Translations under genes and position numbers: made by a program
The notes under the pieces: model-generated
Told to the model about the DNA's origin: nothing
The model's input: the letters and a program-made list of their open reading frames with translations, nothing else
Databases searched by the model: none
Shown here: positions 24,005 to 61,706 of the stretch, one piece after another
Numbering within the stretch: position 1 is the first letter of the stretch
Layout: every line of letters begins with the position of its first letter
NCBI GenBank assembly: GCA_029786595.1
Contig: JAFLXO010000003.1
Coordinates: 4,990-68,989 of the forward strand
Direction of reading: 5' to 3'
DNA: 64,000 bases
From: Nitrososphaerota archaeon
Lineage (GTDB): Archaea; Thermoproteota; Nitrososphaeria; Conexivisphaerales; UBA164

Positions 24005-24571
24005 TCAAAACTCGTGTGCTTCAATATCCGAGCCGTCGCTGATTTTATCGGTTTCTGGGTTGAATGGCAAGACTACTTGGGCGTCTACGATTTTTGTCTG
24101 GCCGCCGTCTTCTACGCACATGAGCCCGTCAAACATGCGGGTATTCCTAGAGATTGTCAGACTCACTGACGGTATCTTTAGCATCTCGCCGTTGGCCTTC
24201 GTAGTATTGATGTCGACGCTGGAGTGGAACGCTCCGAAGCTGCAATGGCTATGACCCCAGCCTACCTGAGCGACACCTGGGGTGTTTTTAAAATGAAGGT
24301 ATACGTCGTCTAACCCGTCTGGATATGTCTGTTCCCAATATGCGCTAGACCCGACCTGGTGCGGCACGAATATCCCATCCACATATACCGTATGCCCCAG
24401 TCTGCGGCCTTCCATCGCGAACCCAAACTCTGACTTTACCATCGAAAGGTAGAACATCATCTGGGCCAAGGCACGGTCAGAAAGGACGATTTTTGGGTCG
24501 CCGTCCGGAGCCTGGGTGGCCTTAACAGGGGCTGGCCTTCCAAATCTAAAAAGTTTCCTGAAGTTGATCAA
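24005..24571 (-). CDS. JAB/MPN (JAMM) metallopeptidase, copy 1
   Basis: JAMM signature GWGHSHCSFGAFHSSVD (H-x-H-x7-S-x2-D) with upstream EFGFAMEG. It is clearly alignable over most of its length with 60545..61306. Confidence 0.75.
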   Translation of the reverse strand: MINFRKLFRFGRPAPVKATQAPDGDPKIVLSDRALAQMMFYLSMVKSEFGFAMEGRRLGHTVYVDGIFVPHQVGSSAYWEQTYPDGLDDVYLHFKNTPGVAQVGWGHSHCSFGAFHSSVDINTTKANGEMLKIPSVSLTISRNTRMFDGLMCVEDGGQTKIVDAQVVLPFNPETDKISDGSDIEAHEF

Positions 24572-25980: not shown

Positions 25981-26053
25981 CTCATCTCCTTTGTTGTCTA
26001 AATCGCCGACGGTGGTGGCCTGGGCATCATAGCCCGGCCATATTAAGAGTAAG

Positions 26054-26138
26054 TGCCGAAGGTGGGATTCGAACCCACGAACCCCTAAGGGACGGGATCT
26101 TAAGTCCCGCGCCGTTGACCAGGCTTGGCTACTTCGGC
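26054..26138 (-). tRNA. tRNA-Leu (anticodon UAA), class II with long variable arm
   Basis: Folded by hand. It has a 7-bp acceptor stem (GCCGAAG/CTTCGGC), anticodon stem CGGGA/TCCCG with loop CT-TAA-GA, a 13-nt variable arm (CCC/GGG stem), T arm GTGGG-TTCGAAT-CCCAC and discriminator A. No CCA is encoded. Confidence 0.9.
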
Positions 26139-42783: not shown

Positions 42784-43794
42784 TTAGGCAGTTTCTCGTT
42801 TAGCCCGCTTTTGGACGAAGTAGTCTTTATATTCGTTCTCTATCTTGTCTGCGACCTCGTCTGACTTGTCGAACATCTTCAGCCGGCGATACCATTCTGC
42901 TATGAGCACCCGACCCCACTGCACCAGCAACGGCTGCTTGATCAGGTCCAGCATGCGGATCGCACTTGTTACCCGCTCAGCCTGATCAGCTCCTGGCTTC
43001 ACACAATGGAGGTTTATGTTGTTGACTGTTTTCAGATCGCTCTGGAGGCGGTAATACGAGTCTGGTCCTAAAGGTATGGGTTTGTAATGGTCATAGACGT
43101 TATCTGACGGCAACTGATCCAAGATTGCCCGGACCATCTTTACATCAGATTCATACAGATGTAACGAGTTGGTGATATGGGTGTATGACCCGAGCCCGAC
43201 TCCAAGGTCTGCCGCGAACACTTGCTGATAGAACTGGAAGGTGAAGGTGTCAAGACATAACCCTATCCTGGCGTCATTAGAGCGCATATTGGTTATGGCG
43301 TGCAGTTTGTCGTCTCGTATCAGGTATGACAGGCTTATCGTGCACGCGATGTCTGGTGACTCATATACTTCCTGGATCGGGTTGTGTATTATGGCGACGG
43401 CGCGCCTGGTGTCCTTCTGGTCACGCAGGGTGTCATATATCCTGTGAAACTGGTGCAGCCCTGTTATTTTCAGGCGGTCGTAATAATACCCATAATAGGT
43501 CCCGGTCACCGGGTTTATGAAACGTTCTACTTGTTTGTTATACGCGATCCCTGTAGGCTTCGAGTTAAACAGGAAATCAAGCGTCTCTGCCATGCCGAAG
43601 GGGAGCGGGAGATCTCTGCCCGGGGGGTTAATATAATTCTCCCTTGGGTTCCTGAACGTAAGCACGGCCGGATAAAATTCCTTAGTGTTCATTTCACGGG
43701 GCGATGCCGGCAACCCGAATTCAAGCAGGTCCCTGACTATATTGGGCCATTCACGCGCCGAGCTTTCTCCTTCTTTTTGGTACATGCACACCAC
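42784..43794 (-). CDS. thymidylate synthase (ThyA)-fold pyrimidine C5 methylase/hydroxymethylase, possibly dCMP-specific
   Basis: ThyA landmarks are in order: DTRRAVAIIHN (RR phosphate clamp), IACTISL (catalytic Cys), NMRSNDARIGLCLDTF (QRSxDxxLGxPFN equivalent) and SLHLY. The Asn of PFN aligns with Asp. Confidence 0.7.
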   Translation of the reverse strand: MVCMYQKEGESSAREWPNIVRDLLEFGLPASPREMNTKEFYPAVLTFRNPRENYINPPGRDLPLPFGMAETLDFLFNSKPTGIAYNKQVERFINPVTGTYYGYYYDRLKITGLHQFHRIYDTLRDQKDTRRAVAIIHNPIQEVYESPDIACTISLSYLIRDDKLHAITNMRSNDARIGLCLDTFTFQFYQQVFAADLGVGLGSYTHITNSLHLYESDVKMVRAILDQLPSDNVYDHYKPIPLGPDSYYRLQSDLKTVNNINLHCVKPGADQAERVTSAIRMLDLIKQPLLVQWGRVLIAEWYRRLKMFDKSDEVADKIENEYKDYFVQKRAKRETA

Positions 43795-45345: not shown

Positions 45346-46980
45346 TCATACCAGCCCGGCTTGCTGCTGTTGCTTCTTAAGTAGATCTTGGAGAACGAGT
45401 TTGCCCGCTTCTTCTGGCCTGATGGCGAACATATAGACCCCTTTGTTATTGAACTTCATAATCTGCTCTTTCAAAGAACTCCTGCTGGGGTCTTCGGTGA
45501 CCAGACTTATGACCACCCGGTTTTGTTTTGCCAGGCTGAATATCTGGGTACTCGCTTGTTCTGCTTCACTCACGGACCCGTCAGTGATTATGAGGATGAA
45601 AGATTCTGCCGGGGTTAGTTTTTCGACCTCATTTAACGCAGAAGTGATGACCGTGTTACCGCCGGTCTTGCTCCTGAGCTCAGAGATGTGTGCAAGCGTT
45701 GAGATAGCCCGGGACCCGACCCCCACCCAGTCCTTCGAATTCTTTTCAGTGGTCGCCGCGCGGCTCCCGAAGTAAATCAAAGACGCTGGGATTCTGTTCT
45801 TTTTGGCGTATGCGAGGCTCCTTACCGCCGTTATCGTCTCCCAGTAAAGGATCGACCTGTCTTTGAAGAAGGTGTCTGTAGAAGTCGACACGTCGATGAC
45901 CGCTATGAACGATTTGAACCCGAACGACTGGTTCTCCTGTTTGATATACCTGAAGACGCTTGTGTACTTCTTCTTCCACTTGGTGGGCTCGTACCTGTTT
46001 TGCGCGACACTGATTGGGTTTAGCCTGGAGACGTCTCCGCCGAGCCACCGTTTGTTAAGCTTCTGGTATATCGGCATCTGTGAACTGGAGCCTTCCAGGA
46101 TGTTGAACGGGAGTATCGAGTCCCATATGAGCTGCCTGGTCATATCCTTGGATATGTCTGCGATGGCGTCGTCTGCGTTGATATCGTTGTTATTGAGCAA
46201 GTCTTTGATCTGGTCGGCGCTAAGGCCTGCCTGTATCCCGATCCCTGCCACGGCGCTACCCTGAGATGTGGGAGTTGCCTGGCCTCTGCCGCTTCCACAC
46301 GCCCCTTCCTGAGACCCTGACTGTATTAAGGAATTGAGGTTCTTAGCAGCATCGACGATCAAATCGATGTTTTTTTCGACCTTGCAGGCTTCTTGCTCCT
46401 TTATGAGCCTGTAGACGTCACTGACAAGGGTCCTAAATGCTGGAGAGGACCTGATACTGCCATCCATATACGTCTTAGGTACCTTTACCCCCATTGTTTC
46501 GGAATAGACCATCTGCAATATATGGAACCCTGAACCTGGCGTGATTTTGCCGTTCTTGACGATCCAGTCTTCCTGTGCGCTACGCATGGCGAACCCTTTG
46601 CTGTCGAGGACACTGTCAATGACGGCGTCTGCGATGATGTTCTCCAGTTCATGGGCTTTGCCGTTCGGCACCCTCAGCTCTGCCATGATCCTGGCCTCGA
46701 TGCGCTTGCCTTCTAAGAAAGAGCTAGGCAGCCCATCTATCGACATGTGCTCGTGCTCATGGCCCATATGTGCCCGTAGGTGCTCGGGTTTGAAGCTGTT
46801 CCAGGTCGGTGGGATGTAGATGGTCATATCAGCATACGACGATGAGAACGTGGTCGCCGTCCTGTCTAATTTTACTGTGACGCCCTGAGGTGGAGGAGGG
46901 AATAAATTCCTCCTTACCTCTAGAGCTACATCAATCAATTCCTTAGGCGCTGGTTCTGGTTTTTGAGCCTGTGTGCGCAT
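45346..46980 (-). CDS. VWA-domain protein with N-terminal zincin-like (HExxH) domain, MoxR partner
   Basis: 544 aa. The N-terminus has HMGHEHEHMS (HExxH). The C-terminal VWA-like region has IAVIDVSTSTD (a degenerate DxSxS MIDAS). It lies immediately downstream of the MoxR-like ATPase. Confidence 0.6.
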   Translation of the reverse strand: MRTQAQKPEPAPKELIDVALEVRRNLFPPPPQGVTVKLDRTATTFSSSYADMTIYIPPTWNSFKPEHLRAHMGHEHEHMSIDGLPSSFLEGKRIEARIMAELRVPNGKAHELENIIADAVIDSVLDSKGFAMRSAQEDWIVKNGKITPGSGFHILQMVYSETMGVKVPKTYMDGSIRSSPAFRTLVSDVYRLIKEQEACKVEKNIDLIVDAAKNLNSLIQSGSQEGACGSGRGQATPTSQGSAVAGIGIQAGLSADQIKDLLNNNDINADDAIADISKDMTRQLIWDSILPFNILEGSSSQMPIYQKLNKRWLGGDVSRLNPISVAQNRYEPTKWKKKYTSVFRYIKQENQSFGFKSFIAVIDVSTSTDTFFKDRSILYWETITAVRSLAYAKKNRIPASLIYFGSRAATTEKNSKDWVGVGSRAISTLAHISELRSKTGGNTVITSALNEVEKLTPAESFILIITDGSVSEAEQASTQIFSLAKQNRVVISLVTEDPSRSSLKEQIMKFNNKGVYMFAIRPEEAGKLVLQDLLKKQQQQAGLV

Positions 46981-46986
46981 TATTTG

Positions 46987-48594
46987 CTACCTCCCTGCGG
47001 TCTTGTCGGTTAACGCTGATATGGCACCTGAAAAGTCAATCTGTGGGTTGATCTGGTCCAGGACCGTCATGTCGCCTTTCTTCCTGGCCGTCTCTTTTAT
47101 CATGTCGATGGCCTCGTCCAGAATAGACCTGATTATGAGCTGGTCGATATATTGGTTCCGGAGTTTCATGGCCTCGCCGATGTCTTTGGTGACCCAGACG
47201 TTTCTGATCGTCTTGAAGTCCTTGGTGAGCAATTTCGCCTGCTCCACGTATTCCTTAACAAGCGCAGCGGTTGCCTTATATTGGTCACCGTATTTTATGA
47301 GGAAATCGGTGCTGTTCCAGAGCACCCTGTGGCTCAGAGACATGATTAGAGCTGGCTCTAGTTCGGGTGTCGACGCGACCTGCCGCTTGTTGATTAGCGC
47401 CAAGATCTTCAGAGCCTCAGTGGCGACTATTATAGGCCTTACCTTTGTGATGTTGCCCTTTGAGCATGGGAACGACTTATACGCGCATAAGTCGCAGTCC
47501 TTTGTCACCATGAACGGGTCGAACGACTCCATGATCCGGTTCTGCTTGGTGGGGGTATAATAGCATCGCGACAGATGTGACACCAGCCCTATAAGGAACG
47601 TCTCGAGGCCGTCGTCGATTTTGACCGTCTTGACAGCCTGCCTTGCCTTGTAGATGATTTCGATCGGCACTGGTTTGATGTTCCCCTTGAGCCGCTCTAA
47701 CTTTTGTATGATTTCCTTAATCTCTTGCACTGAAGGCGCGGCTGCCATGGTCGAAAACGCGTATCTGTCGAACGTGGCGGCGTCTGTCAGCGCGACGTTG
47801 CTCTGGAAGTGTTCGTTTAATGGGTTCGTCGCAAGTATGATGGTGAGCGGCTTGTACTCGACGCGCCCGATGGCGGTATCGTAATACCCCTCATTGAGTA
47901 TCCTGTGGATTTGCGCCAGGAGCATTGGGCCCTTGAACGCTTCGTCCAGGATTGCCAGATCAGCGCCTAGCATCCTGCCCTTCTTCTCTACATGAGGTGG
48001 TTTGCGGCCTAACATTATCGGATGGTCTATTACGGTCCCGAGTATGTCCTGTGGCTCATCCAGGTTGGTCAGGGTCTTGATATAGACAGTTATGGGGACG
48101 TCCTTTACAGGCCCCAGGCTGGCCGATTTGGGGTGTTTTAGAACATCTATTTCTACTTTGACCCCGAGTATGGTCCCAAATTCGGTGTAGTTGACATCCA
48201 CCCCGTCGACCAGGTTCTTGCTCAGCGCGTCAGCGTCCACACCGATCTTAGCTGCGATTTCACCGACGTATTTCAGCAGCTCCCTCTCTGGTATGTAACC
48301 GGACGCTTCAGCCTTTGTGGTGAAATCCTTTTCCAGAGTAACCACAGGCTTGTTGAATAAAGAGCCTATGAACTCTGCTATCGAGGTCTTGAAAACCCCT
48401 GGCGGGCCCTGAATAAGGACCGGTTTCCCGGCCAGGGTCCCCACCAAGATTGTGTTGGCCATCTGCCATTGCGAATACCCCCGATACACGTTGGTGATGA
48501 TACTGAATATCTGGTTCAGCATCACAGAAGTTTGTTCGAACTCCGTGATCTGCTGTGTCGCTTCTGTAGTAGTTACCATTTTCTTACCTCCCAA
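46987..48594 (-). CDS. MoxR-like AAA+ ATPase
   Basis: Walker A is LIQGPPGVFKTSIAE, Walker B is LAILDEAFKG and sensor-1-like is IILATNPLNE, followed by a long helical C-terminal extension. Confidence 0.7.
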   Translation of the reverse strand: MGGKKMVTTTEATQQITEFEQTSVMLNQIFSIITNVYRGYSQWQMANTILVGTLAGKPVLIQGPPGVFKTSIAEFIGSLFNKPVVTLEKDFTTKAEASGYIPERELLKYVGEIAAKIGVDADALSKNLVDGVDVNYTEFGTILGVKVEIDVLKHPKSASLGPVKDVPITVYIKTLTNLDEPQDILGTVIDHPIMLGRKPPHVEKKGRMLGADLAILDEAFKGPMLLAQIHRILNEGYYDTAIGRVEYKPLTIILATNPLNEHFQSNVALTDAATFDRYAFSTMAAAPSVQEIKEIIQKLERLKGNIKPVPIEIIYKARQAVKTVKIDDGLETFLIGLVSHLSRCYYTPTKQNRIMESFDPFMVTKDCDLCAYKSFPCSKGNITKVRPIIVATEALKILALINKRQVASTPELEPALIMSLSHRVLWNSTDFLIKYGDQYKATAALVKEYVEQAKLLTKDFKTIRNVWVTKDIGEAMKLRNQYIDQLIIRSILDEAIDMIKETARKKGDMTVLDQINPQIDFSGAISALTDKTAGR

Positions 48595-49902: not shown

Positions 49903-51048
49903 CTACTCTATTATCGTGGTGAACAACGTCCCCTTAAGCTCTGCTACGGCCACCTGGATGTTCTGCGAAGAGTCTTCAGTGGGTGTGAGCCCGCAAGACG
50001 CCGCCAGCCTCTTGGTGGCTGCCAGCAGTTGTGTGTTGTCCTTACTCAACATGGCCTGGAGGGTCGAATCCACCATCTCAGCCGTCGAGTAAACCCTCTC
50101 TAGGCCCAATGCCCTGGAGAGATCCTTGAGCTGGGCTACCTTCCGTGCGGTGGTCTTAGTGGCCATCGTCGTCCCACCGCTCTGGAGGAGCTCGGCCAGT
50201 CTTAGGACCAGGGGCTCGAGCCGGTTCCTTAGGTTGTTCTCAATCTGTGATACCATCTTGTCGCGCCGGGTGTTTATGTCGTTCTCCATCTTTGTAAGTA
50301 ACTCTTGCTTCCTGACGTCGATGTCAGTCATCATTTTTTGTTTCTTCTCGTCTACAAACTTGAGAAGAGACTCGTCAAAGACGCCGGGGCGCATCAGGCT
50401 GAACCTGATGTCTGGATAGGTCATATGCCTCTTTATCTTGGTGGGATCTGCGATCTTGTTCGTTGTGAGGAAGTCGACGATGCTGGCGAAATCAGAGCTG
50501 TCCTCAAACGCCTTTATTTCAGACCTGATGACGCCTTCTACTATGTCTTTATTGATCTTGTCGATTGCCCCATACGCGTCAAGCAGCATGTCCTTATGGA
50601 TGAGCCTCACAGACGTCTTGACGTCCTTTTTGTTGATGTTCTTGATGGTGGTGATGGACGTTGTATATGGCTCCAAGGCTGCCCAGGCCTTGGTGCGGAG
50701 GCTCACGATGTGATTGATTGTGGACCCGGGATATGGGACGAACCGCATCACCCGCTTCCGGTCCTCGACCACCCCTTCTTTGGTCTGGTAGACCATCTTC
50801 GTCATCTCTATGGTGATCCTCTTCCCTCCGCCCCTGCGTGCATGCAATGCGTACTTGTCGTCTATCGTCGCCAGGAGGTCTTCCAGCCGTGCTAGCACCT
50901 CGGGCTGCGACTCTAGATGGGATACGTCGAATATGTAATTGAGTGTTGTGATGTCAGTTATATCCAGGTCAGGTATATACAGTTCCAGTGGGATCAGTTT
51001 GGACTTAAGCGCCAACTGTTGTGTCAATGGTCTTTGCCTCCGTTTCAC
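49903..51048 (-). CDS. hypothetical helical protein
   Basis: 381-aa ORF. Confidence 0.6.
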   Translation of the reverse strand: MKRRQRPLTQQLALKSKLIPLELYIPDLDITDITTLNYIFDVSHLESQPEVLARLEDLLATIDDKYALHARRGGGKRITIEMTKMVYQTKEGVVEDRKRVMRFVPYPGSTINHIVSLRTKAWAALEPYTTSITTIKNINKKDVKTSVRLIHKDMLLDAYGAIDKINKDIVEGVIRSEIKAFEDSSDFASIVDFLTTNKIADPTKIKRHMTYPDIRFSLMRPGVFDESLLKFVDEKKQKMMTDIDVRKQELLTKMENDINTRRDKMVSQIENNLRNRLEPLVLRLAELLQSGGTTMATKTTARKVAQLKDLSRALGLERVYSTAEMVDSTLQAMLSKDNTQLLAATKRLAASCGLTPTEDSSQNIQVAVAELKGTLFTTIIE

Positions 51049-52606
51049 CCTTCTCAGCTACAGGCCCTGTTGGGACCTGGGGGGATGAAGCATCTCTGGG
51101 GTCCGTATCCTTTGATGCTGTCATCCTTTCAGTTATGCTCTTCTTTATAGACGCGGCCTTTTCAGGGACCACCTCTTCGAGCATCTTGAAGAGCGGGGTA
51201 TCGAACACCGGGTATTCGACAGTCCCAGCGAACATGCGTGGCTGGTCCTTCTTCCTGACTTCAAGCCTGGCCCCCTTATCAGTGTACTGGCTTATACCGA
51301 TGGTAAACCCGTCGGTCTCAACCATCGTCTTGAGCTCGTCTACTGAAAGATATGGGTCTATTCTTGCTGTCACTCTCCCGGCAGATGACGCCGAATAAAG
51401 CGCTTCAGCTACCCGGAGGACTGAGCATATGTCGCTGAAGCTTGAGACCGGACTAGTGGTATCAGAATGCGACGACACATTAGAGGTATCCTTTGAAGTT
51501 ACCACAGTAAGTGGAGCTTCAGTGGCTGGAGTAGGCAGGGTTGGTGCAGCTGCCATCTCAACCGGCTGGGGTGTTGGTGCTACGTCCTTTATCATCGGCA
51601 CATATTTTGGTATGTTGTAATCCCACTTGGTGATTGTCATGCTGTCGTCGTCTGATATCTTGGTGTGGTAGAGTTCCTCAAGCCTTTGGCGGAGGGTTTC
51701 TTTATTCCCATCTGGGACTTCCATCTTTGCCTCTTCATCCGTGATTTCACTGAATTTCTTTGTTGTTACTTCAGTTATGATGGCCCTGTCCATCAGTTTC
51801 ATATAATGCCGTCTGTCCCAGCTGCAGGTCAGAGTGACGATATCGTTTGGCAGGTACTCTTTCTGGCCGAACCTGATGGTCGCTGTCTTGGTTTTATTGG
51901 CTATAGCGTTCTCAATAGCCGTTGATGGGAACGAATTGAGTATCTTGTCGTCTGGGAGGTTCCCAACGACCTTCTTAGGGTTGTCAAGCAGCGCCTTGGT
52001 CTGGGTATACATTGCAGGCCATAGAGCGTCCTCATAGTTCTTGGTGAATTCCAGGATCATGGACTCAATGCCTGCGTCATTGCCATAAATGATGATTGCC
52101 GGGGCATTTTTGATGACGCCTGCTTGCGCCTTCCAGTAAGCAAACACCTGAGTGATCCAGGTCCATTCAAACTTACCATTGGTTCTGAACTTGCTCTCAA
52201 GGAGGATTGCTGTCCCGTCAAACGTCAGGTTGCCCTCTATGTCATATGAAATGTTGAACGGCGCTGGCACTGATTGTATCTTTGCATACCCTCGCTGATC
52301 CCAATACCCAATCTTCATCCCTGGGACCAGAAAGTCGATATACCCCTTTATCGTCTCATATTTGCTGTGGACTTCTCTAAGTGGGATTGAATATTCCAGA
52401 AGCGCCTCATAGACGGCGTTTTCTAGCTTCTTGCCCTTCTCTTCACTTGAAAAGTTAGGAGGATGGCGCAACTCATATTCAGCCCGGCCCTTCGCCAGCA
52501 CAGAAGCCCCGACCCGGCCCTGCGAAAGAGCCAGATGGGACTGCAAACGGGCATAAACGTCGTCAACAAATTCCTTTATAGACTTGTCATAGGTCATATT
52601 ACTCAA
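51005..52606 (-). CDS. hypothetical protein, possible PD-(D/E)xK nuclease N-domain plus low-complexity linker
   Basis: 533 aa. GYIDFLVPG ... AILLESKF fits D..(D/E)xK spacing. The central segment is Pro/Thr/Ser-rich (APTPQPVEMAAAPTLPTPATEAP). The nuclease call is weak. Confidence 0.55.
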   Translation of the reverse strand: MSNMTYDKSIKEFVDDVYARLQSHLALSQGRVGASVLAKGRAEYELRHPPNFSSEEKGKKLENAVYEALLEYSIPLREVHSKYETIKGYIDFLVPGMKIGYWDQRGYAKIQSVPAPFNISYDIEGNLTFDGTAILLESKFRTNGKFEWTWITQVFAYWKAQAGVIKNAPAIIIYGNDAGIESMILEFTKNYEDALWPAMYTQTKALLDNPKKVVGNLPDDKILNSFPSTAIENAIANKTKTATIRFGQKEYLPNDIVTLTCSWDRRHYMKLMDRAIITEVTTKKFSEITDEEAKMEVPDGNKETLRQRLEELYHTKISDDDSMTITKWDYNIPKYVPMIKDVAPTPQPVEMAAAPTLPTPATEAPLTVVTSKDTSNVSSHSDTTSPVSSFSDICSVLRVAEALYSASSAGRVTARIDPYLSVDELKTMVETDGFTIGISQYTDKGARLEVRKKDQPRMFAGTVEYPVFDTPLFKMLEEVVPEKAASIKKSITERMTASKDTDPRDASSPQVPTGPVAEKGETEAKTIDTTVGA

Positions 52607-52993: not shown

Positions 52994-53289
52994 CTCTGTT
53001 CAATGGCACGGAACACCACATACTGCACAAAGTCCTTGAACGGTAATGGGACATTGTTGGCAGCTTTGATTGCCGCCACAGGGTATTCTTTTGCCAGTGC
53101 CCGGATGCGCTTTATCGCCGGTTCTGGCTCGGTGTCGAGCGTGTTCACCAATGTTATAAACTCTTTGATCATTTGGTGGACGCTCGGCTTCTCTATCTCT
53201 TTGTTACACAAAGAGCAGATGTATGTTATGGCGACGTTGCTTTTGTTGTCCTTTGCCCTACACATCTTTCCGCCGCACTCACAAATCAA
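52990..53289 (-). CDS. small zinc-ribbon protein
   Basis: 99 aa with CECGGKMC...CSLCNKE. It has 4-nt overlaps on both sides. Confidence 0.5.
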   Translation of the reverse strand: MICECGGKMCRAKDNKSNVAITYICSLCNKEIEKPSVHQMIKEFITLVNTLDTEPEPAIKRIRALAKEYPVAAIKAANNVPLPFKDFVQYVVFRAIEQR

Positions 53290-54662
53290 TTCTCGTCACT
53301 CCTGTCTTTCTGGGTATGGGAAACGCTCCCACGGCCGCCGTATACTATGGATGAAATCAGGTGGCCATAGCCTTTCTCAGGGACCATCTTGCCCCTGTGT
53401 TCGTTGTAGTATACAGGGGGTGCTTCAAAGTACAGATACTTTGGTACTTCAAGATATATGGTCTTTGGATCAATTTTGCGCTCCAGAAGCTGGGCAGCTA
53501 TAACCGCCATTATGCGTTCGCGTATCTGTTTGTTGAGGGTCCTTGTTATGTCTCTCTCAGCGTCTTCTGGAGATATCTTGAACTTTGAAATGTAGTATGT
53601 CTTTAACGTGTCGATTGGCACCCCGTTGAGCCCCATCTCGTCTATCACATTGGCCCTTATCATCTCTGTTTGCTCCTTGTCAAGGAACGTCGCCTTGTCC
53701 AGAACGTCTTCTGGCGAGAACGACGTCTGTTCAAATACATGCTTTACAGCGTAGTCTATGATGAACTGGAGGTTCCCGACCATCCTTTCAAAACTAAGGA
53801 CATCAGCCCGTTTTATCTTGATATACTGATCTGGCCCTTTATAGACGAGCCCCTCTTCTGTCCACCCTGACATCGCATCTTCTGGGGCGGTGGTGCTGAC
53901 CTTCCATCCTCTTACAGGTTCTACCAGCCCGTTGACCGGGACCATTCTTTTCATGGTCTCATAATCGAGGAATTCATAACCTCTGTCTGTCTCGACCAGG
54001 ATGTCGAAGACTTTGAATTTGGCGTCAAACGGGTAGAGCATCCCGTATTTCATCTCTTTGTCGACGGCGATGGGGTTGTATTTTGTCAGGAATTCTGAAG
54101 AGACGAGTTTCACATCCCTGGCGTCAAAGACCGGGCCGAGCGCCGCCTTTAGCCCTGGTATCACGGAAGACACCACGACGTTGCCCATCTCGTCTATCAT
54201 CCCGTTAGACCTGCCTTCATTGAATACTGGGAGATACCGCTGTTTGAAAGACGCGAACGTGGTTACTGGTATCCCTGGGACCGTTTGGTTTCCAAGGACA
54301 AGGTTGTAATTGATGTCATTGTAGAACCTTGCAGGCTCTATAGTCCCTCTGGTCCTATGTATGAGGCCGCGCTGGAGGGCCAACATCATTATCTGGGTCC
54401 CGTTGACCTTTTCTGTCAAGAACCCTCCAGGTGACAGCGCTTCAGAACGCAGGTTGTCTATATGTGGGTAGTTCAGGAGCCACTCAGATGTCGTGACGTC
54501 CATAGCGAGGCCAAGATATTTGTTTGTTTTGACACGCTGCATCAAGTACTTCCCACCATCTGAGTTGCTGAAGACCAGCTTGTGGCCTCCGTACTCGAGC
54601 TTATGCGACGACTTTAACAGTTCCTTTATATCGTCGAGCTCTTTATGTGTATAAAATAACAT
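53286..54662 (-). CDS. large RNA ligase-like nucleotidyltransferase (Rnl2-type motif I)
   Basis: Ordered motifs are present: I TEKVNGTQ (EKxxGxN-like), III SSEF, IIIa VFDIL, IV EEGLVYKG, V YIKIKR. Confidence 0.45.
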   Translation of the reverse strand: MLFYTHKELDDIKELLKSSHKLEYGGHKLVFSNSDGGKYLMQRVKTNKYLGLAMDVTTSEWLLNYPHIDNLRSEALSPGGFLTEKVNGTQIMMLALQRGLIHRTRGTIEPARFYNDINYNLVLGNQTVPGIPVTTFASFKQRYLPVFNEGRSNGMIDEMGNVVVSSVIPGLKAALGPVFDARDVKLVSSEFLTKYNPIAVDKEMKYGMLYPFDAKFKVFDILVETDRGYEFLDYETMKRMVPVNGLVEPVRGWKVSTTAPEDAMSGWTEEGLVYKGPDQYIKIKRADVLSFERMVGNLQFIIDYAVKHVFEQTSFSPEDVLDKATFLDKEQTEMIRANVIDEMGLNGVPIDTLKTYYISKFKISPEDAERDITRTLNKQIRERIMAVIAAQLLERKIDPKTIYLEVPKYLYFEAPPVYYNEHRGKMVPEKGYGHLISSIVYGGRGSVSHTQKDRSDEN

Positions 54663-55425: not shown

Positions 55426-56679
55426 TTAAACCGAACCGCCTGGTGTGAGTTTCATGTCTAGGAAGAAGCTCTGGAACCCTGGTAACTTTGCCGGGGTCCT
55501 TGTGTAGCCTATAGCCGCAAATCCTGCCCTCTTTGCTATGCTCATGGCGGTTTCTTTTGTCGTTATGCTGTCGAGATCGAAGACGTCGCCGTCTGTTAGG
55601 ATGACGACACCGTCTCCTGGCCGCATCTGCTTGTCGATGACCTCCAAGGCTGGACCGACTTCAGTGCCTCCGCCACCCTTCATCCTCTTAGCGATTCTTG
55701 AGGCCACCTCAGAGGGGCTGTCTGCCGTCATCAACTCGTACGCTTTCGCGTCGAAGGCCAGGACTATCACGGTCCCGTTTCTTGCATGGTTCTTGACCAG
55801 CCCGATTTCGTATTTCAAGGTCGTTTCATCGATGCTGCCAGACGTGTCGACGAGGTTGAACAGGTCATACCTGTATCCATAGTCGCCGGCAAGCTCGTCG
55901 TTCCTTCTGTTGATGTATGCAAAACTGCTGTCGTGGTGCTCATGTAGGTCTATAGTGGATTTGAGGAAGAAGGTCCATGGTGGTTTGACTTCGATGACCT
56001 CTGATATAGCCCGGTCCATCTCAGCAGGCATGTTCCCAGCTTGCTGCCCCAACGTCCTCATCCTTGAAAGGATGCGCTTGGTCTCTTCAGCGTCTCGTTT
56101 GCTGAAGATGTCTCCACCGTCTTCGCCATCCTCAATCTCTTGGTAGTTGTCGAGTGCCGCGATCAAGTCGTCTTCTGTCATATTCTCGAGGACCTTGTCT
56201 GACACATCCTCTAAAAGACGGGCGATTTCTTCTACTGACATCTGCTCGAGGTCCCCTATATCGGTCTTGGTCACTTCTGCGATGGCATCCATCGTAATCT
56301 CGTTTTTACCAAGGTCGATTTTGCCAGCGTTGACTTCCCTATCCAGGGAACCACGGATGATGCTATTGACCTTCGCACAGGCGGCTATGTTCCAGGCGTT
56401 CTTGGTAAACCCCCGGCCTCTGTAATAATGCCCGAAAGCAAGGTGGAGGCAGGCGTGGAATACGCGGCCTCTTTTGATGTTGAAGTCGGCCCTATTCCAT
56501 GCTGACCCGTTGACTACCATGCGGCCGTTGTTGTCTACTGAAACCAGCCCAGCCGTTTCCTTGCTTTCGATTATCTTTGCATATTTCAACGGGATGAGCA
56601 GGTATGGTGCTTTCTTGTTGAAATAGACCCTGATGTCGATGAAATCTGCCCGTATTGTTTCTTCAGTCATAATGCGCAC
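55426..56679 (-). CDS. VWA-domain protein with N-terminal putative metallopeptidase-like domain (DUF2201-like), MoxR partner
   Basis: 417 aa. The N-terminus has FHACLHLAFGHYYRG. The VWA MIDAS is LFNLVDTSGSIDE. It ends ..KLTPGGSV. Confidence 0.6.
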   Translation of the reverse strand: MRIMTEETIRADFIDIRVYFNKKAPYLLIPLKYAKIIESKETAGLVSVDNNGRMVVNGSAWNRADFNIKRGRVFHACLHLAFGHYYRGRGFTKNAWNIAACAKVNSIIRGSLDREVNAGKIDLGKNEITMDAIAEVTKTDIGDLEQMSVEEIARLLEDVSDKVLENMTEDDLIAALDNYQEIEDGEDGGDIFSKRDAEETKRILSRMRTLGQQAGNMPAEMDRAISEVIEVKPPWTFFLKSTIDLHEHHDSSFAYINRRNDELAGDYGYRYDLFNLVDTSGSIDETTLKYEIGLVKNHARNGTVIVLAFDAKAYELMTADSPSEVASRIAKRMKGGGGTEVGPALEVIDKQMRPGDGVVILTDGDVFDLDSITTKETAMSIAKRAGFAAIGYTRTPAKLPGFQSFFLDMKLTPGGSV

Positions 56680-56736: not shown

Positions 56737-58080
56737 TTACTTCACCCGTATCAGACTGGCACCTATTGAGGTGATTAGCTCAGTCACCCTCCTGGCGCTT
56801 ACAGACTTTTCGGGGTCAAATTTTGGAGACGACTTAGAGATGAATCCGTCTACATACTTGTAGAACCGGAACGTCATTTCTTGCTTAGTAGATGGCAGCA
56901 TGGAAAGTATCACGGCCATATATTCCTTGCCGCCAATCTGACCCTTACCGTCGTTCATGGTAGCTACGGCAGCCAGGATTTTGAACACGTCAGGCCATGC
57001 CTTCTCGACTACCACCTTGTTGGCGATTGACAACGCTGCGAGGCACTTCTGTTCTAGGTCGAAACTGGCGATCTTTGTCGGATCTGCTGCTATCTCTTCA
57101 AAGGTCGGTGGGGTGTGTTCTGAAAACTGGACCAGCTCAGATCCGGTCTGACCGAGCTTGCCTTCTGCGAGCTCGACCTTAAAGACCTCATCTGCCGGGC
57201 TGCTCCCGAGGGCGTTCCAGGCTACAGCGATGTACTCCATGCCTCTGAGAGTCGCAAACATGCGCATCTCATAGTCTTCGTTCTCTTTCACAGCGTCGGC
57301 AAAAATCTTGTCCTCCTTCCAGACGTAGAAGGCGAAGACGCGCTTGTCCCAGTTGTCGCCATGCATCCTGTCCATGTATGTGGCCCAGGACCTAGGGTTC
57401 GGCCGGTCGACCTGAATCTTGACACATCTGTCAAGCATCGGCCTCGGAAGTGGCCTTGCGATAGCCGAGAACCTTGGAGGGTTGCACGCGGCTATGACGA
57501 AGCTGTCAGGGTGCAACGGAGTGCTCCCTATCTTATGCTCGTCTAGTGTACGCATGATCGCTGCGAACATGTTGTCTCTGCGTTCGTTGGTGATTTCATC
57601 TATGAAGAGGATGGTCGGGATGGTGCTTGCCAGTTTGGCTAGCGCCAGGGGCACGAGCCTAGTGAAGTCCGCCTCTTCGTTGACCCGTGGGTAGCCGTTG
57701 AGCTCTACAGGGTCGTGCAGGGCAGGGCGGAGGTGCGCGAAGATGAAGTTCTCATCTGGCTTCTCAAGGAGGTTCTTCATCACGTCCGGGTCGTCCTTGA
57801 TCTTTTCCCAGTCTCTGAATATCCTAGAGGTCTTTAGCGGGGCATGGCATTTCGGACACTCCTGAGGATCGTTTGAATAGACATGCTCCGGCTTTGTCCC
57901 ACAATTTGCGCATGGGGCTGGGAATTTCTTCACAATGTCGGTAGCCCAAAGCCAGATCGTGGTGGTTTTGCCTACACCTGTGTCGCTTTCTAGCAGCGGG
58001 GTTATATAGAAGTGCGTCTTACTTCTAAGTTCAAACAACCTAGTCAGATAGGTAGGTACAGTGTTTATATCCATATTCAT
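56737..58080 (-). CDS. MoxR/AAA_5-like AAA+ ATPase with inserted zinc ribbon
   Basis: Walker A is ESDTGVGKTTTI, Walker B is ILFIDEITNE and sensor-1-like is FVIAACNPP. There is an inserted CANCG...CPKCH. Its start forms an ATGA overlap with the upstream gene. Confidence 0.7.
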   Translation of the reverse strand: MNMDINTVPTYLTRLFELRSKTHFYITPLLESDTGVGKTTTIWLWATDIVKKFPAPCANCGTKPEHVYSNDPQECPKCHAPLKTSRIFRDWEKIKDDPDVMKNLLEKPDENFIFAHLRPALHDPVELNGYPRVNEEADFTRLVPLALAKLASTIPTILFIDEITNERRDNMFAAIMRTLDEHKIGSTPLHPDSFVIAACNPPRFSAIARPLPRPMLDRCVKIQVDRPNPRSWATYMDRMHGDNWDKRVFAFYVWKEDKIFADAVKENEDYEMRMFATLRGMEYIAVAWNALGSSPADEVFKVELAEGKLGQTGSELVQFSEHTPPTFEEIAADPTKIASFDLEQKCLAALSIANKVVVEKAWPDVFKILAAVATMNDGKGQIGGKEYMAVILSMLPSTKQEMTFRFYKYVDGFISKSSPKFDPEKSVSARRVTELITSIGASLIRVK

Positions 58081-58550
58081 ATTCCTCCTGTTTTGTCGTC
58101 ATTCGGCAACAGACGGTAAAATTCTTCTTTTATGAGTCGCTTCAGCAACCTGGCGTTATAGACGAGATGCATCGATATCTCAGCAAACTCGTCTTCAAGG
58201 CTTATAGGCCGCACCTTAAAGGCAACCACGGGGGTAGGTGGTAGCGAGAACTCATAGAACTCGGCACTGCCTTCTACAACATTGGGGTCCTTCTCTAGCA
58301 GTTTCGAATACTCCCCCATCTCAGCCAACGAAATGAACCCATCGAGAGGAGACAGCCCCATGAGGTTCCTGTTGACCTTAATGAACGGTTTTGCTGCTAT
58401 CTCCATGGGTTCATATCTGTTCCATGACAGCCCGATCTCCTTTGCAGCTATTAACCGTTCCAGTAACTGACCAAGCATCCGCATCTCCAGCGTCGTCTGA
58501 GACTTTCGTATCGCGTTTTTGGTCATATCAATATACTCTTGATATTGCAT
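58077..58550 (-). CDS. hypothetical protein with C-terminal ..KTGGI tail (candidate modifier or substrate)
   Basis: 157 aa. It ends in LLPNDDKTGG-I, verified codon by codon. It sits between the E2-like genes and the AAA+ gene. Confidence 0.55.
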   Translation of the reverse strand: MQYQEYIDMTKNAIRKSQTTLEMRMLGQLLERLIAAKEIGLSWNRYEPMEIAAKPFIKVNRNLMGLSPLDGFISLAEMGEYSKLLEKDPNVVEGSAEFYEFSLPPTPVVAFKVRPISLEDEFAEISMHLVYNARLLKRLIKEEFYRLLPNDDKTGGI

Positions 58551-58562
58551 TTTACCCCCTTC

Positions 58563-59387
58563 TTAATTCTTTACCTCTATAAAAAGGTCATTATCCTTGA
58601 GGGTGTTAAGTGTTATCCGGACTTTGGGTTGGGTCTTGTTCACTACTGACTCTGGTGATACAGTCTGCGGTTTGAGAGGTGTTATAGTCAAATTGTGTCT
58701 GGTCACGACATGTTTGAACAGCCAGTCTGGGAGGCCCCTGATGTCCATTCCAGGATACTGAGGTGCCAGAGCCGCCACGATGACGTCTTTGGCGCTATTG
58801 ACGGTCAGCTTTTTGTTGGCCGTTGCCTGAACTATGGCGTTTTCAAGTTCTTGCAGTTCTGGCTTCTTAAGATGATACCATGGGGTGCCTTTCCATTTGA
58901 ACGGCCCAATGTTTTGACCTGGGATCTGTAAGGAACTTAACTGGTGATACCTCTGACTGTTAAATCTATCATTGCTGTCAGTGTTAGCTAGCACGGCCTC
59001 GACAGGCTCAAAATTATTAGCTAACCTTTTTGCCGCATTGTTTAGGTTAGATAGGCTGATCATCTTGCGAATCATGCCATAACCAGCCCCGACGCACAAC
59101 TCCCCACCTGAAATATGTCTATGGTTGAAGGTAGGTGCTACTCTGATGGATGATGAATATGAATGTGGAGCCCCATGAAATACCAAAGTTTCCTCATCAC
59201 GTTTTTCATAAACCATGGTGACAGTTATACGGGGTACCACAGCAGCCTTAGCCGATGAAGTTACGATAAAGTTTCTGATTTCTTTGCGTATATTTACGTT
59301 TCCACTGCCATACAGGGAAGCCGTGATGTTCGGGACGGTGTTTTTGAAGATGCCATTGAGGCCTGTTATCAAGTCGGCATATGTCAT
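58563..59387 (-). CDS. E2 (UBC)-like protein, long paralog
   Basis: 274 aa. FNHRHISGGELCVGAGYG resembles the E2 H-x-N...G-x-x-C active-site flap. The downstream FEPVEAVLANTDSNDR is shared with 59400..59951. Confidence 0.45.
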   Translation of the reverse strand: MTYADLITGLNGIFKNTVPNITASLYGSGNVNIRKEIRNFIVTSSAKAAVVPRITVTMVYEKRDEETLVFHGAPHSYSSSIRVAPTFNHRHISGGELCVGAGYGMIRKMISLSNLNNAAKRLANNFEPVEAVLANTDSNDRFNSQRYHQLSSLQIPGQNIGPFKWKGTPWYHLKKPELQELENAIVQATANKKLTVNSAKDVIVAALAPQYPGMDIRGLPDWLFKHVVTRHNLTITPLKPQTVSPESVVNKTQPKVRITLNTLKDNDLFIEVKN

Positions 59388-59399
59388 CTATAGCACCTC

Positions 59400-59951
59400 C
59401 TAATGTCTAACAGCTATATCAACGCCCGGGGCGACCTTCTTGAGGTTCATCTGGTTGCTGACGCGGGGCCTTCTTGTCTTACCAAGACGTATCCCAGCCC
59501 CGGCTACGATCGAGTCTGGTTTTTCTGTGTTTGACAGTATCGCTTCAACGACTTCGAAGTTACTGATTATTATGTCCGGGGCGCCGGCGTCTATAGGTAT
59601 GCGCCTTTTCAATAAATCAGCGCTTTGACCTAGGCAGATGCCTTCAGTGAAGACGTCGGCGTGCCAGATCCTAGAAGTCGGTGACACTTTGATTCCTCTG
59701 CTAACACTTTTGTTTTTATCAAGTCTCAGTATTAAGACATTACCAGCCGTCAGATGGTGCTGCATCGTTATCGTGAACGGATTCAGCCTATATGCGTACT
59801 TTGTCCCGATTGTGATGAAATCTGACTCTTTTTTTGTGATTGTAAGATATGATGTTTGATTTGAGACAGTGACCGAGAACGGCCTGTCTTTATATCGTGC
59901 ATTTAAACCGCTTTCTAAAGGATGCTCCGTTCCGATCACCTCCAATACCAC
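59400..59951 (-). CDS. E2 (UBC)-like protein, short paralog
   Basis: 183 aa. RIWHADVFTEGICLGQSADLL closely mimics the E2 HPN-x4-G-x-ICL-x-x-L signature. FEVVEAILSNTEKPDS is shared with 58563..59387. Confidence 0.5.
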   Translation of the reverse strand: MVLEVIGTEHPLESGLNARYKDRPFSVTVSNQTSYLTITKKESDFITIGTKYAYRLNPFTITMQHHLTAGNVLILRLDKNKSVSRGIKVSPTSRIWHADVFTEGICLGQSADLLKRRIPIDAGAPDIIISNFEVVEAILSNTEKPDSIVAGAGIRLGKTRRPRVSNQMNLKKVAPGVDIAVRH

Positions 59952-59952
59952 G

Positions 59953-60579
59953 CTATAACGAGTTGTTAATCATCTTTGGGTGCTTCTCATTGCGTAACAT
60001 CGCCAGGATAATCTGTGTTGTCATCGAGGCGCAGACCATATGTGTCGCCTCTAGCCGCACCTTGGGTGCAACAAAACAGCTGCCTCTCCTGGCTGGGTCG
60101 TTACCTTCATTGAACGCGCTGTACCCGTCGATATCACTGGTAAGGATTGTATACTGGTTTTCTTCAACACGTGCGTCCACAAAATTGGTGAACGATTTGC
60201 TTATGACGTCTCTTGTTGTAAGGTTGTCAACCGTGAGGACACCAATGGCGCTGTTTTTCGACCCAATCCCGAGGTTTGTTATATCCCCGAGCTCAACTAT
60301 CTCAGCGTCATGTGGTATCACCTTCACGGCACTGTCAGCATACCGTTTGGCGAGCGCTTCGATCTTCAGTTTGCCTACATCAGTTTTGTCATAATCAGCG
60401 TAAAGAAGGTTTTTGGGTTCGACCATGTCAAAGTCTACAATGTGTATCTCTTTGACTTTCGCGCGAACCAGCTCGCTGTCAAGCTTGGTCAAGAACCACA
60501 GTATCCAGCTCCCGACCCCACCGACACCGAAAACAGCTATTTTTTTAGACAAAGTCAAACACCTCTTTCTCTGATCCAA
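59953..60579 (-). CDS. minimal E1-like adenylating enzyme (ThiF/MoeB/HesA family)
   Basis: 208 aa. It has Rossmann IAVFGVGGVGSW, VDFDMVEPKNLLY (D-x-D-x-V-x3-NL), TVDNLTTRDVI (DN..tR) and a downstream Cys in RRGSCFVAP. Confidence 0.7.
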   Translation of the reverse strand: MDQRKRCLTLSKKIAVFGVGGVGSWILWFLTKLDSELVRAKVKEIHIVDFDMVEPKNLLYADYDKTDVGKLKIEALAKRYADSAVKVIPHDAEIVELGDITNLGIGSKNSAIGVLTVDNLTTRDVISKSFTNFVDARVEENQYTILTSDIDGYSAFNEGNDPARRGSCFVAPKVRLEATHMVCASMTTQIILAMLRNEKHPKMINNSL

Positions 60580-61306
60580 ACGTTATATCGGGTTGTGATT
60601 CCTGGTCGAGTTTGTCCTCGATAACCGATAGAAGATCTTTGATTTGATACAAAATGCCCCTCACTGATTTGTTCTCAGCGTCAAGAGTATTTCCATCACC
60701 AGGGAGGAATTCAGAAACGTCATTATGCCCGTCTGAACTAACAACGTTGACAGCCGATGGATTGAATGGGAGGACTACCTTCGCCTCTGTCAATGTTATA
60801 CCCCCAGATCGGTCCTTGATTGCTACTTTGCCGTCGAATCGTTTGGGGTTATGTCTTGATATGGTCAGACTCGCCACTGGGAGCTTGAGAATGTTTGCTA
60901 TATCCATTGTGGTGTCAGTGTCGGTGCCAGAATGAAAGGCCCCGAAGTCGCAGTGGCTGTGGCCCCAGCCTACCTGGGTTTTTTGGGTGTTTTTATAGTA
61001 GAGGAACACGTCATCTACACCATCCAGTGGCACCTGTTCCCAGTGAGCCCCAGATACGCGTTGCGAGGGGAGGTAAATGTCGGTGACATGCACCTGCCGG
61101 GTCCCATGACGGTAGCCAGACATCGCGAACCCAAACTCTGTTTTGAACGTTGAGAGGTAATACATCATCTTACTCAACGCCTTGGCTGAGATGATGATTT
61201 TAGACTTACCGTCCTGAGGAACCTCTCCGTACAGGTCATTTATCTGAAAGTTGTCAGGTGTGTCAAAGTATTTCTCTTTTTTACCCAATAATAACCCCTC
61301 CATCAT
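60545..61306 (-). CDS. JAB/MPN (JAMM) metallopeptidase, copy 2
   Basis: JAMM signature GWGHSHCDFGAFHSGTD. It is a paralog of 24005..24571 with an extra C-terminal region of about 60 aa. Confidence 0.75.
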   Translation of the reverse strand: MMEGLLLGKKEKYFDTPDNFQINDLYGEVPQDGKSKIIISAKALSKMMYYLSTFKTEFGFAMSGYRHGTRQVHVTDIYLPSQRVSGAHWEQVPLDGVDDVFLYYKNTQKTQVGWGHSHCDFGAFHSGTDTDTTMDIANILKLPVASLTISRHNPKRFDGKVAIKDRSGGITLTEAKVVLPFNPSAVNVVSSDGHNDVSEFLPGDGNTLDAENKSVRGILYQIKDLLSVIEDKLDQESQPDITFGSEKEVFDFV

Positions 61307-61706
61307 TACAAATCTTACATATCATCATAATGTCATCAGTGCTCGCAAGTGTTACATGCTGCTCCTGGAGCATACGTTTAGCAGCCGCTATATGGGGACA
61401 TATGTTTAGTCCGTATTCTTCTTGTTCTGGATAATCCTGGCCTTGGGCCTGGTCGTCTATGGTGATTTCAATCTTATCATGCGCTCGTAGATCAATTTCA
61501 TGGTCTTTACACCAGGCGATTATTACGGGCGTGGCGTCGTTAGTTGACCTCCCTTCCCGGCTCCATCTATACCCTATCGCAGTATTGGGACATGGGACCA
61601 TAGCGTGACCAAGATCAGTTTTAGCCCTGGCTACCCCTGAGCACATCAGTTTTTGCTCATGGATCAAATTCAATATCAGTTTGTCTAGTTGCTCCATCTT
61701 AATCAC
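61281..61706 (-). CDS. Cys-containing hypothetical protein, first gene of the cassette
   Basis: 141 aa. It ends ..CKICNDGGVIIG. Its 3' end overlaps the JAB start. Confidence 0.5.
   Translation of the reverse strand: MIKMEQLDKLILNLIHEQKLMCSGVARAKTDLGHAMVPCPNTAIGYRWSREGRSTNDATPVIIAWCKDHEIDLRAHDKIEITIDDQAQGQDYPEQEEYGLNICPHIAAAKRMLQEQHVTLASTDDIMMICKICNDGGVIIG

Follow-up and report, generated by a model that had tools for sequence, protein, structure and literature searches.

A minimal ThiF/E1-family enzyme and an Rpn11-like JAMM protease encoded side by side on a putative archaeal mobile element

The subject of this analysis is a compact gene cassette found in a 64,000-nucleotide (nt) stretch of DNA from a Nitrososphaerota archaeon (GenBank assembly GCA_029786595.1, contig JAFLXO010000003.1, positions 4,990 to 68,989 of the forward strand), hereafter called the window. 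The cassette encodes an adenylating enzyme of the ThiF/E1 family (designated ThiF below), a JAMM metalloprotease (JAB1), two paralogous proteins (A and B) and a Cys-rich protein (p141). An earlier reading of the sequence alone had taken it for a ubiquitin-like conjugation system, in which ThiF would be the activating enzyme (E1) and A and B the conjugating enzymes (E2). The five open reading frames (ORFs) on which that reading was built are all present at 58563-61706 in the ORF list of the window, on the minus strand and co-directional. The motifs quoted from them, namely HSHCDFGAFHSGTD, GVGGVGS, DFDMVEPKNLLY, VDNLTTRD, WHADVFTEGICLGQ and NHRHISGGELCVGAG, are likewise real.

Start codons were revised by alignment of orthologues and by the presence of GGAGG or GAGGTG ribosome-binding sites 7-9 nt upstream; the resulting coordinates are given in Table 1. 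The genes are tightly packed: p141 and JAB1 overlap by 8 nt, as do JAB1 and ThiF, and the gaps between ThiF and B, B and A, and A and the following gene, p157, are of 12 nt at most. Beyond p157 lie the genes of a MoxR-type AAA+ ATPase and of a protein with a VWA domain. The order p141-JAB-ThiF-B-A-p157-MoxR-VWA was found to be kept in two more lineages, with 42-89% amino-acid identity. These lineages came from public assemblies (L001, Logan SRR13205817; L010, JGI 3300039716), and conservation is reported below over the three lineages together. Synteny of the three genomes extends well past the eight-gene block. The lineage is very rare, and pattern scans with p157, A/B and MoxR found no related loci in IMG/VR, JGI metagenome contigs or GTDB genomes.

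The ThiF product matched the Pfam ThiF profile (PF00899) with E = 1.1e-11 and 44.7 bits, for a cut-off of 28.1. The GxGxxG loop (GVGGVGS), the DFD..E.KN motif and VDNLTTRD (VDN..TR) are conserved in the three lineages, and DFDMVEPKNLLY is present in the ORF. An above-threshold profile match, the GxGxxG loop and the catalytic Asp of DN..R, which together define the ThiF/MoeB/E1 superfamily, are therefore all found in this protein, and from its sequence it can be regarded securely as a minimal ThiF/E1-family adenylating enzyme of 199 amino acids (aa). The sequence-only reading had correctly named a ThiF-type enzyme; the 208 aa that it gave for the length are reduced by the TTG start now adopted. 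Two Cys residues, C159 and C174, are invariant. C159 lies ~50 residues past the DN..R motif, a position that we take to be comparable to that of C184 of ThiF, and a motif check in the three lineages found no CxxC zinc site.

According to searches of NCBIfam, PADLOC and the PDB, the enzyme fits none of the named subfamilies (ThiF, MoeB, UbaA, PRTRC ThiF, TcdA, Cap2, BilD). Its best partial matches in NCBIfam were two short ThiF families, PRK08644 (E = 6e-14) and TIGR02354 (E = 3e-11), with scores of 52 bits for a cut-off of 159 and 44 bits for a cut-off of 152. No NCBIfam subfamily cut-off was reached, those of ThiF, MoeB, UbaA, PRTRC and TcdA included; the UbaA model scored 19.9 bits for a cut-off of 450, and the TcdA model 16 bits for a cut-off of 304. 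With PADLOC, the Cap2 'E1-E2' models gave the best matches (8e-10) and BilD reached 4e-5, and these matches cover mainly the N-terminal Rossmann part, that is, the first 70-80 residues. A profile built on the three ThiF sequences matched MccB, TcdA, the NEDD8 E1 and PaaA in the PDB, all with E = 0.02-0.07. In a tblastn search against phages, weak matches of ThiF were obtained in crAss-like and jumbo phages.

JAB1 possesses the upstream Glu and the HxHx7Sx2D site, in the form of HSHCDFGAFHSGTD, and both are intact in the three lineages; it also carries a C-terminal extension of ~100 aa. The PADLOC JAB model matched it at E = 1e-6, and the scores of the single sequence with the Pfam Prok-JAB and JAB profiles were below cut-off. 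When a profile of the three JAB1 sequences was compared with the PDB, the top matches were all yeast or human Rpn11/PSMD14, the best with E = 1.3e-7 over 140 residues. The Rpn11-like protein of Caldiarchaeum came next (E = 0.069), and no Cap3, BilC or SAMP-type JAMM was found below E = 0.1. The active site that characterizes JAMM/MPN+ proteins (E...HxHx7Sx2D in an MPN fold) is thus present in JAB1 of all three lineages, and we conclude that JAB1, as the sequence-only reading had proposed, is securely a JAMM/MPN+ metalloprotease, active-looking and closest to Rpn11. No tblastn match of JAB1 was obtained in phages. JAMM proteins that cluster nearest Rpn11 are known from operons with ubiquitin (Ub), E1 and E2 homologues, and the Caldiarchaeum enzyme, CsRpn11, trims its Ub precursor after Gly-Gly (Fuchs et al. 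2018, PMC6043591).

A second JAMM paralogue, JAB2, was detected in the window with the JAB1 profile (hmmsearch, E = 3.7e-57). With the MPN core of JAB1 it shares 52% identity; the motif is intact in the form of HSHCSFGAFHSSVD, and the C-terminal extension of JAB1 is lacking. JAB2 sits 36 kb from the cassette, amid genes without assigned function.

The genes downstream of ThiF, in which WHADVFTEGICLGQ and NHRHISGGELCVGAG are present, encode the paralogues B and A. That they form a duplicated pair, as had been noticed from the sequence, is borne out by BLASTP (E = 5e-9, 28% identity over 138 aa). Eight sequences of the A/B family are known, four of each type, and every one contains exactly one Cys. 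This residue, which had been singled out earlier as a candidate active site, lies inside an invariant H-x8-C-x-G in 8 of the 8 sequences (H97-x8-C106-x-G108 in B; the Cys is C98 in A), and an invariant NFE.VEA.L helix follows some 25 residues further on. Since the sole invariant Cys is accompanied by an upstream invariant His in both paralogues, a catalytic or ligand role of the Cys/His pair is likely. The C-terminal residue is also constant within each type, A always ending in Asn (VKN, ISN or ITN) and B always in His (VRH or IKH).

The family appears to be confined to few genomes. With the A/B profile, an exhaustive HMMER search over 1.84 billion representative proteins matched five family proteins, from the three lineages. 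The sole match from outside the family, P0007 (3427 aa, E = 6e-6), is an RTX/DUF5801 repeat adhesin, and it was treated as spurious because its score is summed over repeats. No tblastn match of A/B was found in phages. B was modelled with AlphaFold2 (AF2) from five aligned sequences, with a predicted local distance difference test (pLDDT) of 63 and a predicted TM-score (pTM) of 0.64; the pLDDT is below 50 in the loop 78-103. The model starts with an N-terminal helix and a meander of six strands, after which come a long loop of low confidence that carries the His, then the Cys, a short helix and a long helix. The order of elements in the model may thus be called roughly E2-like, but with six strands and not the four of the UBC fold. 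Foldseek comparison of the model with BFVD returned as best match an unnamed viral protein of 493 aa (A0A516KZW4, E = 3e-3, TMq 0.41); several further unnamed viral proteins, of 420-540 aa, were matched as well.

If the cassette activates a protein modifier, a gene for the latter should be sought nearby. The sequence-only reading had noted the lack of an obvious beta-grasp gene; this holds within the window, and a candidate, p73, is found just outside it. The p73 gene lies on the same contig, 4.6 kb upstream of p141 and about 2.3 kb past the window end, and encodes a protein of 73 aa, MSQKVQVIVPMHGEETIDYAENVDTVGDIRRKLSVNAQQRYNLKLVDPSTGRVLNDNDPAPQVVRVVANLRGA. Identity among its orthologues in the three lineages is 85-89%, and each of them terminates in LRGA. 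The protein aligns end to end with human ubiquitin, and the helix, the QQR and GR.L.D motifs and the LRG tail line up. The score of the global alignment (z = 3.5-4.8) is attained by 0-3 of 2000 shuffles. Among 29 small coding-strand ORFs compared with ubiquitin, p73 ranked first (z = 5.0, the next one 3.5). Codon differences between the lineages are synonymous in 25-29 cases and non-synonymous in 8-11, which suggests strong purifying selection. The codons of the tail vary synonymously, so that LRGA appears to be constrained at the protein level. A TATA-like box, a strong ribosome-binding site and, after the stop, a hairpin with a T-run mark the gene as a transcription unit of its own; the stem of the hairpin differs in sequence between lineages, with pairing retained. 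On these comparisons, p73 is our foremost candidate for a modifier on which the E1/JAMM pair would act; it is a lead and not a finding. Two genes after p73, a 176-aa protein, p176, has an invariant E...HTHP-x10-SPxD that recalls prokaryotic JAB; it was not retained as a JAB, there being no support from Pfam or the PDB.

Conserved Gly-Gly tails were also considered as marks of a modifier. Gly-Gly within the last seven residues occurs in three coding-strand ORFs of the window, p141 and p157 among them. The tails of p157 (...TGG-I/V) and p141 (...GG-x3/4-G) are the sole conserved ones among 127 coding-strand ORFs; the C-terminal Gly-Gly of the VWA protein is not conserved. Both were rejected as modifier tails. 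The Gly-Gly codons, ACAGGAGGA in p157 and GATGGAGGGG in p141, are the GGAGG Shine-Dalgarno sequences of MoxR and JAB1, placed 8-9 nt before the ATG and the TTG of these genes (that of p141 reads GGAGGGG). They are nucleotide-identical in the three lineages, and the adjacent codons vary synonymously. Embedded Shine-Dalgarno sequences of this kind can be seen at 58083-58091 and 61297-61303. In the window, GGAGG is followed by a start codon at 4-12 nt (mostly 7-9) in 27 of 70 occurrences, compared with 0 of 65 in the reverse-complement control, and GGAGG or GAGGTG 7-9 nt upstream of the start is a general initiation signal, serving 27 ORFs. Because they are encoded by the ribosome-binding site of the next gene, the conserved glycines of p141 and p157 are no evidence for a modifier. 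With these tails recognised as by-products of ribosome-binding sites, no candidate modifier is left inside the window.

In p141, ten Cys and His residues are invariant over the three lineages, including CxxH, CPH and CxxC knuckles. As a result, p141 is probably a zinc-binding, Cys/His-rich protein. It has no Pfam match. A relation to C39 double-glycine peptidases was considered and not adopted: the PDB entry 6mpz was matched locally and marginally with E = 0.021, and hhalign with a home-made C39 profile gave a probability of 17%, a score reached by 1 of 300 shuffles, but the alignment covers the His/Asp hairpin and not the region of the catalytic Cys. Zinc-binding accessory proteins are found in bacterial E1/E2/JAB operons of types 6c and 6e, and helical accessory proteins occur too (Iyer et al. 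2006). The p157 protein is probably helical and well conserved (Table 1); its AF2 model reached a pLDDT of 39. Its membership of the system is uncertain.

The cassette lies in a setting that is archaeal, given that the element encodes its own TFB, a TFIIB homologue with a TFIIB zinc ribbon (Pfam TFIIB, E = 7e-43). The source is labelled by NCBI as a metagenome-assembled genome of Nitrososphaerota. The archaeal context with DNA repair genes and a MoxR/VWA pair, as described from the sequence alone, is supported. The window also encodes an ATP-dependent DNA ligase, EndoVII and a DEDD exonuclease, besides the further nucleic-acid functions listed in Table 1. The MoxR protein of the block matched phrog_1297 (E = 1e-32), gave weak AAA matches and resembles N4 gp24-like ATPases. 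Its VWA partner matched Pfam DUF2201_N (1.8e-10) and DUF2201 (6e-8) as well as phrog_1314 (3e-27). The pair resembles the N4 gp24/gp25-type pair of phages. A second MoxR/VWA pair is present elsewhere in the window. Only position ties either pair to the E1/JAB genes, and a functional link is unproven.

Most ORFs of the window belong to no known family. For ten large ORFs no PHROG match was obtained, and neither a capsid nor a terminase gene was seen. A mobile element is plausible; the virus that had been proposed as an alternative is unproven. Orthologues of the cassette were found on contigs of up to 430 kb, one of 185 kb among them, so that the element may either be of very large size or have integrated.

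Table 1. Genes of the cassette and other features of the window and its contig, with amino-acid identity over the three lineages
Feature	Position	Strand	Identity	Remarks
p141	61281..61697	-	55-60%	ATG 61697; 138 aa; ORF reaches 61706
JAB1	60545..61288	-	51-65%	TTG 61288; 247 aa (253-aa ORF before start revision)
ThiF	59953..60552	-	74-79%	TTG 60552; 199 aa
Paralogue B	59400..59951	-	55-61%	181-183 aa
Paralogue A	58563..59387	-	42-49%	274 aa; B-like core plus ~125-aa C-terminal extension
p157	58077..58550	-	72-83%	157 aa; stop overlaps or abuts MoxR start
MoxR-type AAA+ ATPase with zinc-ribbon insert	56737..58074	-	84-89%	ATG 58074
DUF2201_N (putative zincin) + VWA protein	55426..56670	-	81-82%	ATG 56670; MoxR partner
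p73	L003:2849-3070	+		73 aa; same contig, window-equivalent ~66.3 kb
p176	L003:3560-4090	+		176 aa
JAB2, second JAMM paralogue	24005..24571	-		188 aa
TFIIB/TFB homologue	2613-3515	-
TFIIS-type zinc-ribbon protein	L003:916-1224			same contig
RNA-ligase-like	31660-32544
RNA-ligase-like	53286-54662
Thymidylate-synthase-like (ThyA-like)	42784-43794
DHH/DHHA1 phosphoesterase	26186-27145
ASCH	51005-52606
tRNA-Leu(UAA)	26053-26138
Second MoxR/VWA pair	45346-48594	-		MoxR 46987-48594 (weak C-terminal PIN_6); VWA 45346-46980

The cassette was then compared with known systems. By analogy, the best-supported reading makes it work most like the Ub operons of Caldiarchaeum subterraneum and of Asgard archaea (Ub, E1, E2, RING E3 and a Rpn11-like JAMM), except that its E1 is minimal and its E2 candidates are unrecognisable. 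Both are archaeal, the JAMM of the cassette is nearest the Rpn11 type, a Cys/His-rich accessory protein is present in both, and the modifier may need C-terminal trimming, as does the CsUb precursor by CsRpn11. There are differences as well. The E1 of the cassette is a bare 199-aa adenylation domain, and for its putative E2s neither the models nor the fold searches gave a UBC match. In addition, p141 does not have RING spacing, and the candidate modifier ends in RGA instead of GG and is encoded outside the cassette. Finally, the Caldiarchaeum and Asgard operons belong to host chromosomes, whereas the cassette would belong to a mobile element.

CBASS of type II (an antiphage signalling system based on cyclic oligonucleotides) combines Cap2, an E2-E1 fusion, with Cap3, a JAB. 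The conjugated partner in CBASS need not be a beta-grasp protein. The best PADLOC matches of ThiF were to Cap2 and JAB1 matched the PADLOC JAB model; however, E2 and E1 are not fused in the cassette, the scanned proteins included neither a CD-NTase nor an effector, and the Cap2 match is that of the first 70-80 Rossmann residues. The SAMP/UbaA/JAMM1 system (SAMP, small archaeal modifier protein) is likewise archaeal and pairs an E1 with a JAMM. In contrast to it, the cassette enzyme scores far below the cut-off of the UbaA model, SAMP-type JAMMs are not among the PDB matches of JAB1, and SAMP conjugation has no E2-like partner. The Bil system (BilA, a ubiquitin-like protein or Ubl; BilB, an E2; BilC, a JAB; BilD, an E1), which corresponds to type 6d of Iyer et al. 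(2006), resembles the cassette in having separate genes for E1, E2-like and JAB proteins and a helical accessory. Unlike the single-domain ThiF, BilD is a multi-domain protein (IAD-AAD-CYS), no BilA or BilB match was obtained with PADLOC, and Bil is a bacterial defence system whereas the cassette lies on an archaeal element. PADLOC applied to the eight block proteins gave partial E1 and JAB matches, and matched neither the CD-NTase and effector of CBASS, nor the BilA and multi-domain BilD of Bil, nor the DUF6527 serine protease of Bub. Judged by the features that define these systems, the cassette belongs to none of CBASS, Bil, Bub and SAMP.

ThiF-family genes are also carried by viruses. Three E1-like genes without assigned role are present in the Asgard virus Nidhogg, and others in crAss-like phages and in jumbo phages such as Acinetobacter ME3, where PRTRC protein A is found too. 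They share with the cassette gene a location on a virus or mobile element. In contrast with the cassette, identity is only 27-36% over part of the protein, and in the loci inspected no JAMM adjoins ThiF and no A/B family is found.

We tentatively read the cassette as a divergent, element-encoded module of ubiquitin-type activation and deconjugation, a view to which we would give slightly less than an even chance. ThiF, as expected from its family, would activate a small modifier by ATP-dependent adenylation of its C-terminal carboxylate, the modifier being most likely p73, or alternatively a host protein of the SAMP, Urm1 or Ub type. The Rpn11-like JAMM, again judging by its family, would trim the modifier, removing Ala73 and exposing Gly72, and/or release it from its targets. 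The invariant Cys of A and B could possibly take over the activated modifier as a thioester and hand it to the targets, which would make the two proteins functional analogues of E2s; the longer paralogue A could recognise targets through its extra domain. As for p141, it may be a zinc-binding accessory or an E3-like factor. From the gene context, A and B as E2-like carriers are a reasonable hypothesis, while membership of the UBC superfamily is without support so far.

Several observations weigh against such a module. The E2 identity of A and B, which the sequence-only reading had derived from the resemblance of their best-conserved block to an E2 active-site flap, was not recovered by any search. 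No E2/UBC model of Pfam (UQ_con, Prok-E2), PADLOC (Cap2, BilB), NCBIfam or PHROG was matched at E<=1. Comparison by hhalign gave a probability of 0.2% with UBE2D2, although the His and the Cys do align, and 0.6% with the phage PRTRC protein A. The UBC signature [FYWLSP]-H-[PC]-[NHL]-[LIV]-x(3,4)-G-x-[LIVP]-C-[LIV], which the control UBE2D2 matches, is found in 0 of the 8 A/B sequences, because their spacing falls short by one residue and they lack the Pro and the Asn. Foldseek comparison of the B model with the PDB gave no UBC match (best E = 0.37; UFC1 TM 0.18); since the active-site loop of the model is of low confidence, this does not refute a UBC fold. ThiF, for its part, is without the extra domains and the zinc site typical of conjugating E1s. 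The candidate modifier is not in the cassette, six genes lying between p73 and p141, and it has no Pfam or PDB match. Its hhalign alignment to ubiquitin is weak (P = 0.028, with 10 of 300 shuffles reaching the score). A phmmer search with ubiquitin over every ORF of the window and loci found no significant match. Lastly, the entire 64-kb window is tightly packed with co-directional genes on one strand, so that adjacency within the cassette is weak evidence of a functional link, and synteny in three lineages does not count as independent evidence, the lineages being close relatives.

In a rival scheme, p73 or a host Ubl is activated and deconjugated without any E2, in the manner of SAMP or Urm1, while A, B, p141 and p157 are either substrates or neighbours with no relation to the process. 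In archaea, SAMPs are known to be conjugated by the E1 UbaA, paired with a JAMM protease, and without an E2; neither sequence nor fold supports A and B as E2s, and adjacency is uninformative in a uniformly packed genome. We nevertheless consider this scheme rather unlikely. In the PDB, JAB1 is nearer to Rpn11 than to SAMP-type JAMMs, and the Rpn11 class accompanies operons with an E2 (Fuchs et al. 2018, PMC6043591). The sole invariant Cys with its upstream His calls for a catalytic or ligand role of A and B, and the UbaA model falls far short of its cut-off. The bare E1 could also act on something other than a Ubl, such as the C-terminus of a peptide, as MccB and PaaA do, or a modified nucleoside, as TcdA does, with JAB1 functionally separate. 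The equally weak PDB matches to MccB, TcdA, the NEDD8 E1 and PaaA leave room for this, as does a neighbourhood rich in nucleic-acid enzymes (RNA ligases, ASCH, DHH, EndoVII, RNase T, DNA ligase, together with a tRNA). The substrate of MccB ends in Asn, and so, always, does paralogue A. The 8-nt overlap of the ThiF and JAMM genes speaks against it, E1-JAB pairing being a hallmark of Ubl systems (Iyer et al. 2006); moreover, 199 aa leave no room for the peptide-clamp domain of MccB, and the TcdA score is far from its cut-off. Action on a non-Ubl substrate is thus quite improbable.

Still less probable, in our view, is sulfur-carrier or cofactor chemistry of the ThiS, MoaD, CysO-Mec+ or QbsE type, in which ThiF would thiocarboxylate a carrier that JAB1 trims or releases. 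Sulfur operons with ThiF, JAB and Ubl genes have been described (Iyer et al. 2006), and the best NCBIfam partial matches of the enzyme are short ThiF families, PRK08644 and TIGR02354, but their scores are far below the cut-offs. Cofactor genes with a sulfur carrier, which the sequence-only reading had named among the findings that would speak against conjugation, were looked for by Pfam and PHROG scans of ~40 window proteins, and these revealed no genes of thiamine, molybdopterin or cysteine pathways or of sulfur assimilation. A rhodanese domain was not found either, and JAB1 is nearest Rpn11. At the other extreme, A and B might represent an as yet unseen, non-UBC class of Cys-dependent carrier or ligase which, with the bare-minimum E1, the two Rpn11-like JAMMs and p73, would form a self-contained conjugation system by which a large archaeal element or virus remodels host or element proteins, possibly feeding the MoxR/VWA pair. 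We consider this bolder proposal doubtful, and to be taken as unlikely for the present.

Returning to the divergent ubiquitin-type module that we tentatively favour, a caution of more general use comes out of its analysis: a GGAGG embedded in the end of a gene can create a conserved C-terminal Gly-Gly, and the nucleotides should be checked before a Ub-like tail is called. Should the module indeed conjugate a modifier, an archaeal element would carry a ubiquitin-type system of very small size, consisting of a 199-aa E1, a protease like Rpn11 and, possibly, E2s of a new kind. It would then bear on the assembly of ubiquitin signalling before the eukaryotes, and on whether archaeal viruses or plasmids manipulate the protein tagging of their hosts, as is the case for viruses of eukaryotes. 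Even with A and B not being E2s, the locus still shows genes for a Rpn11-like JAMM and a minimal E1 travelling on archaeal mobile elements.

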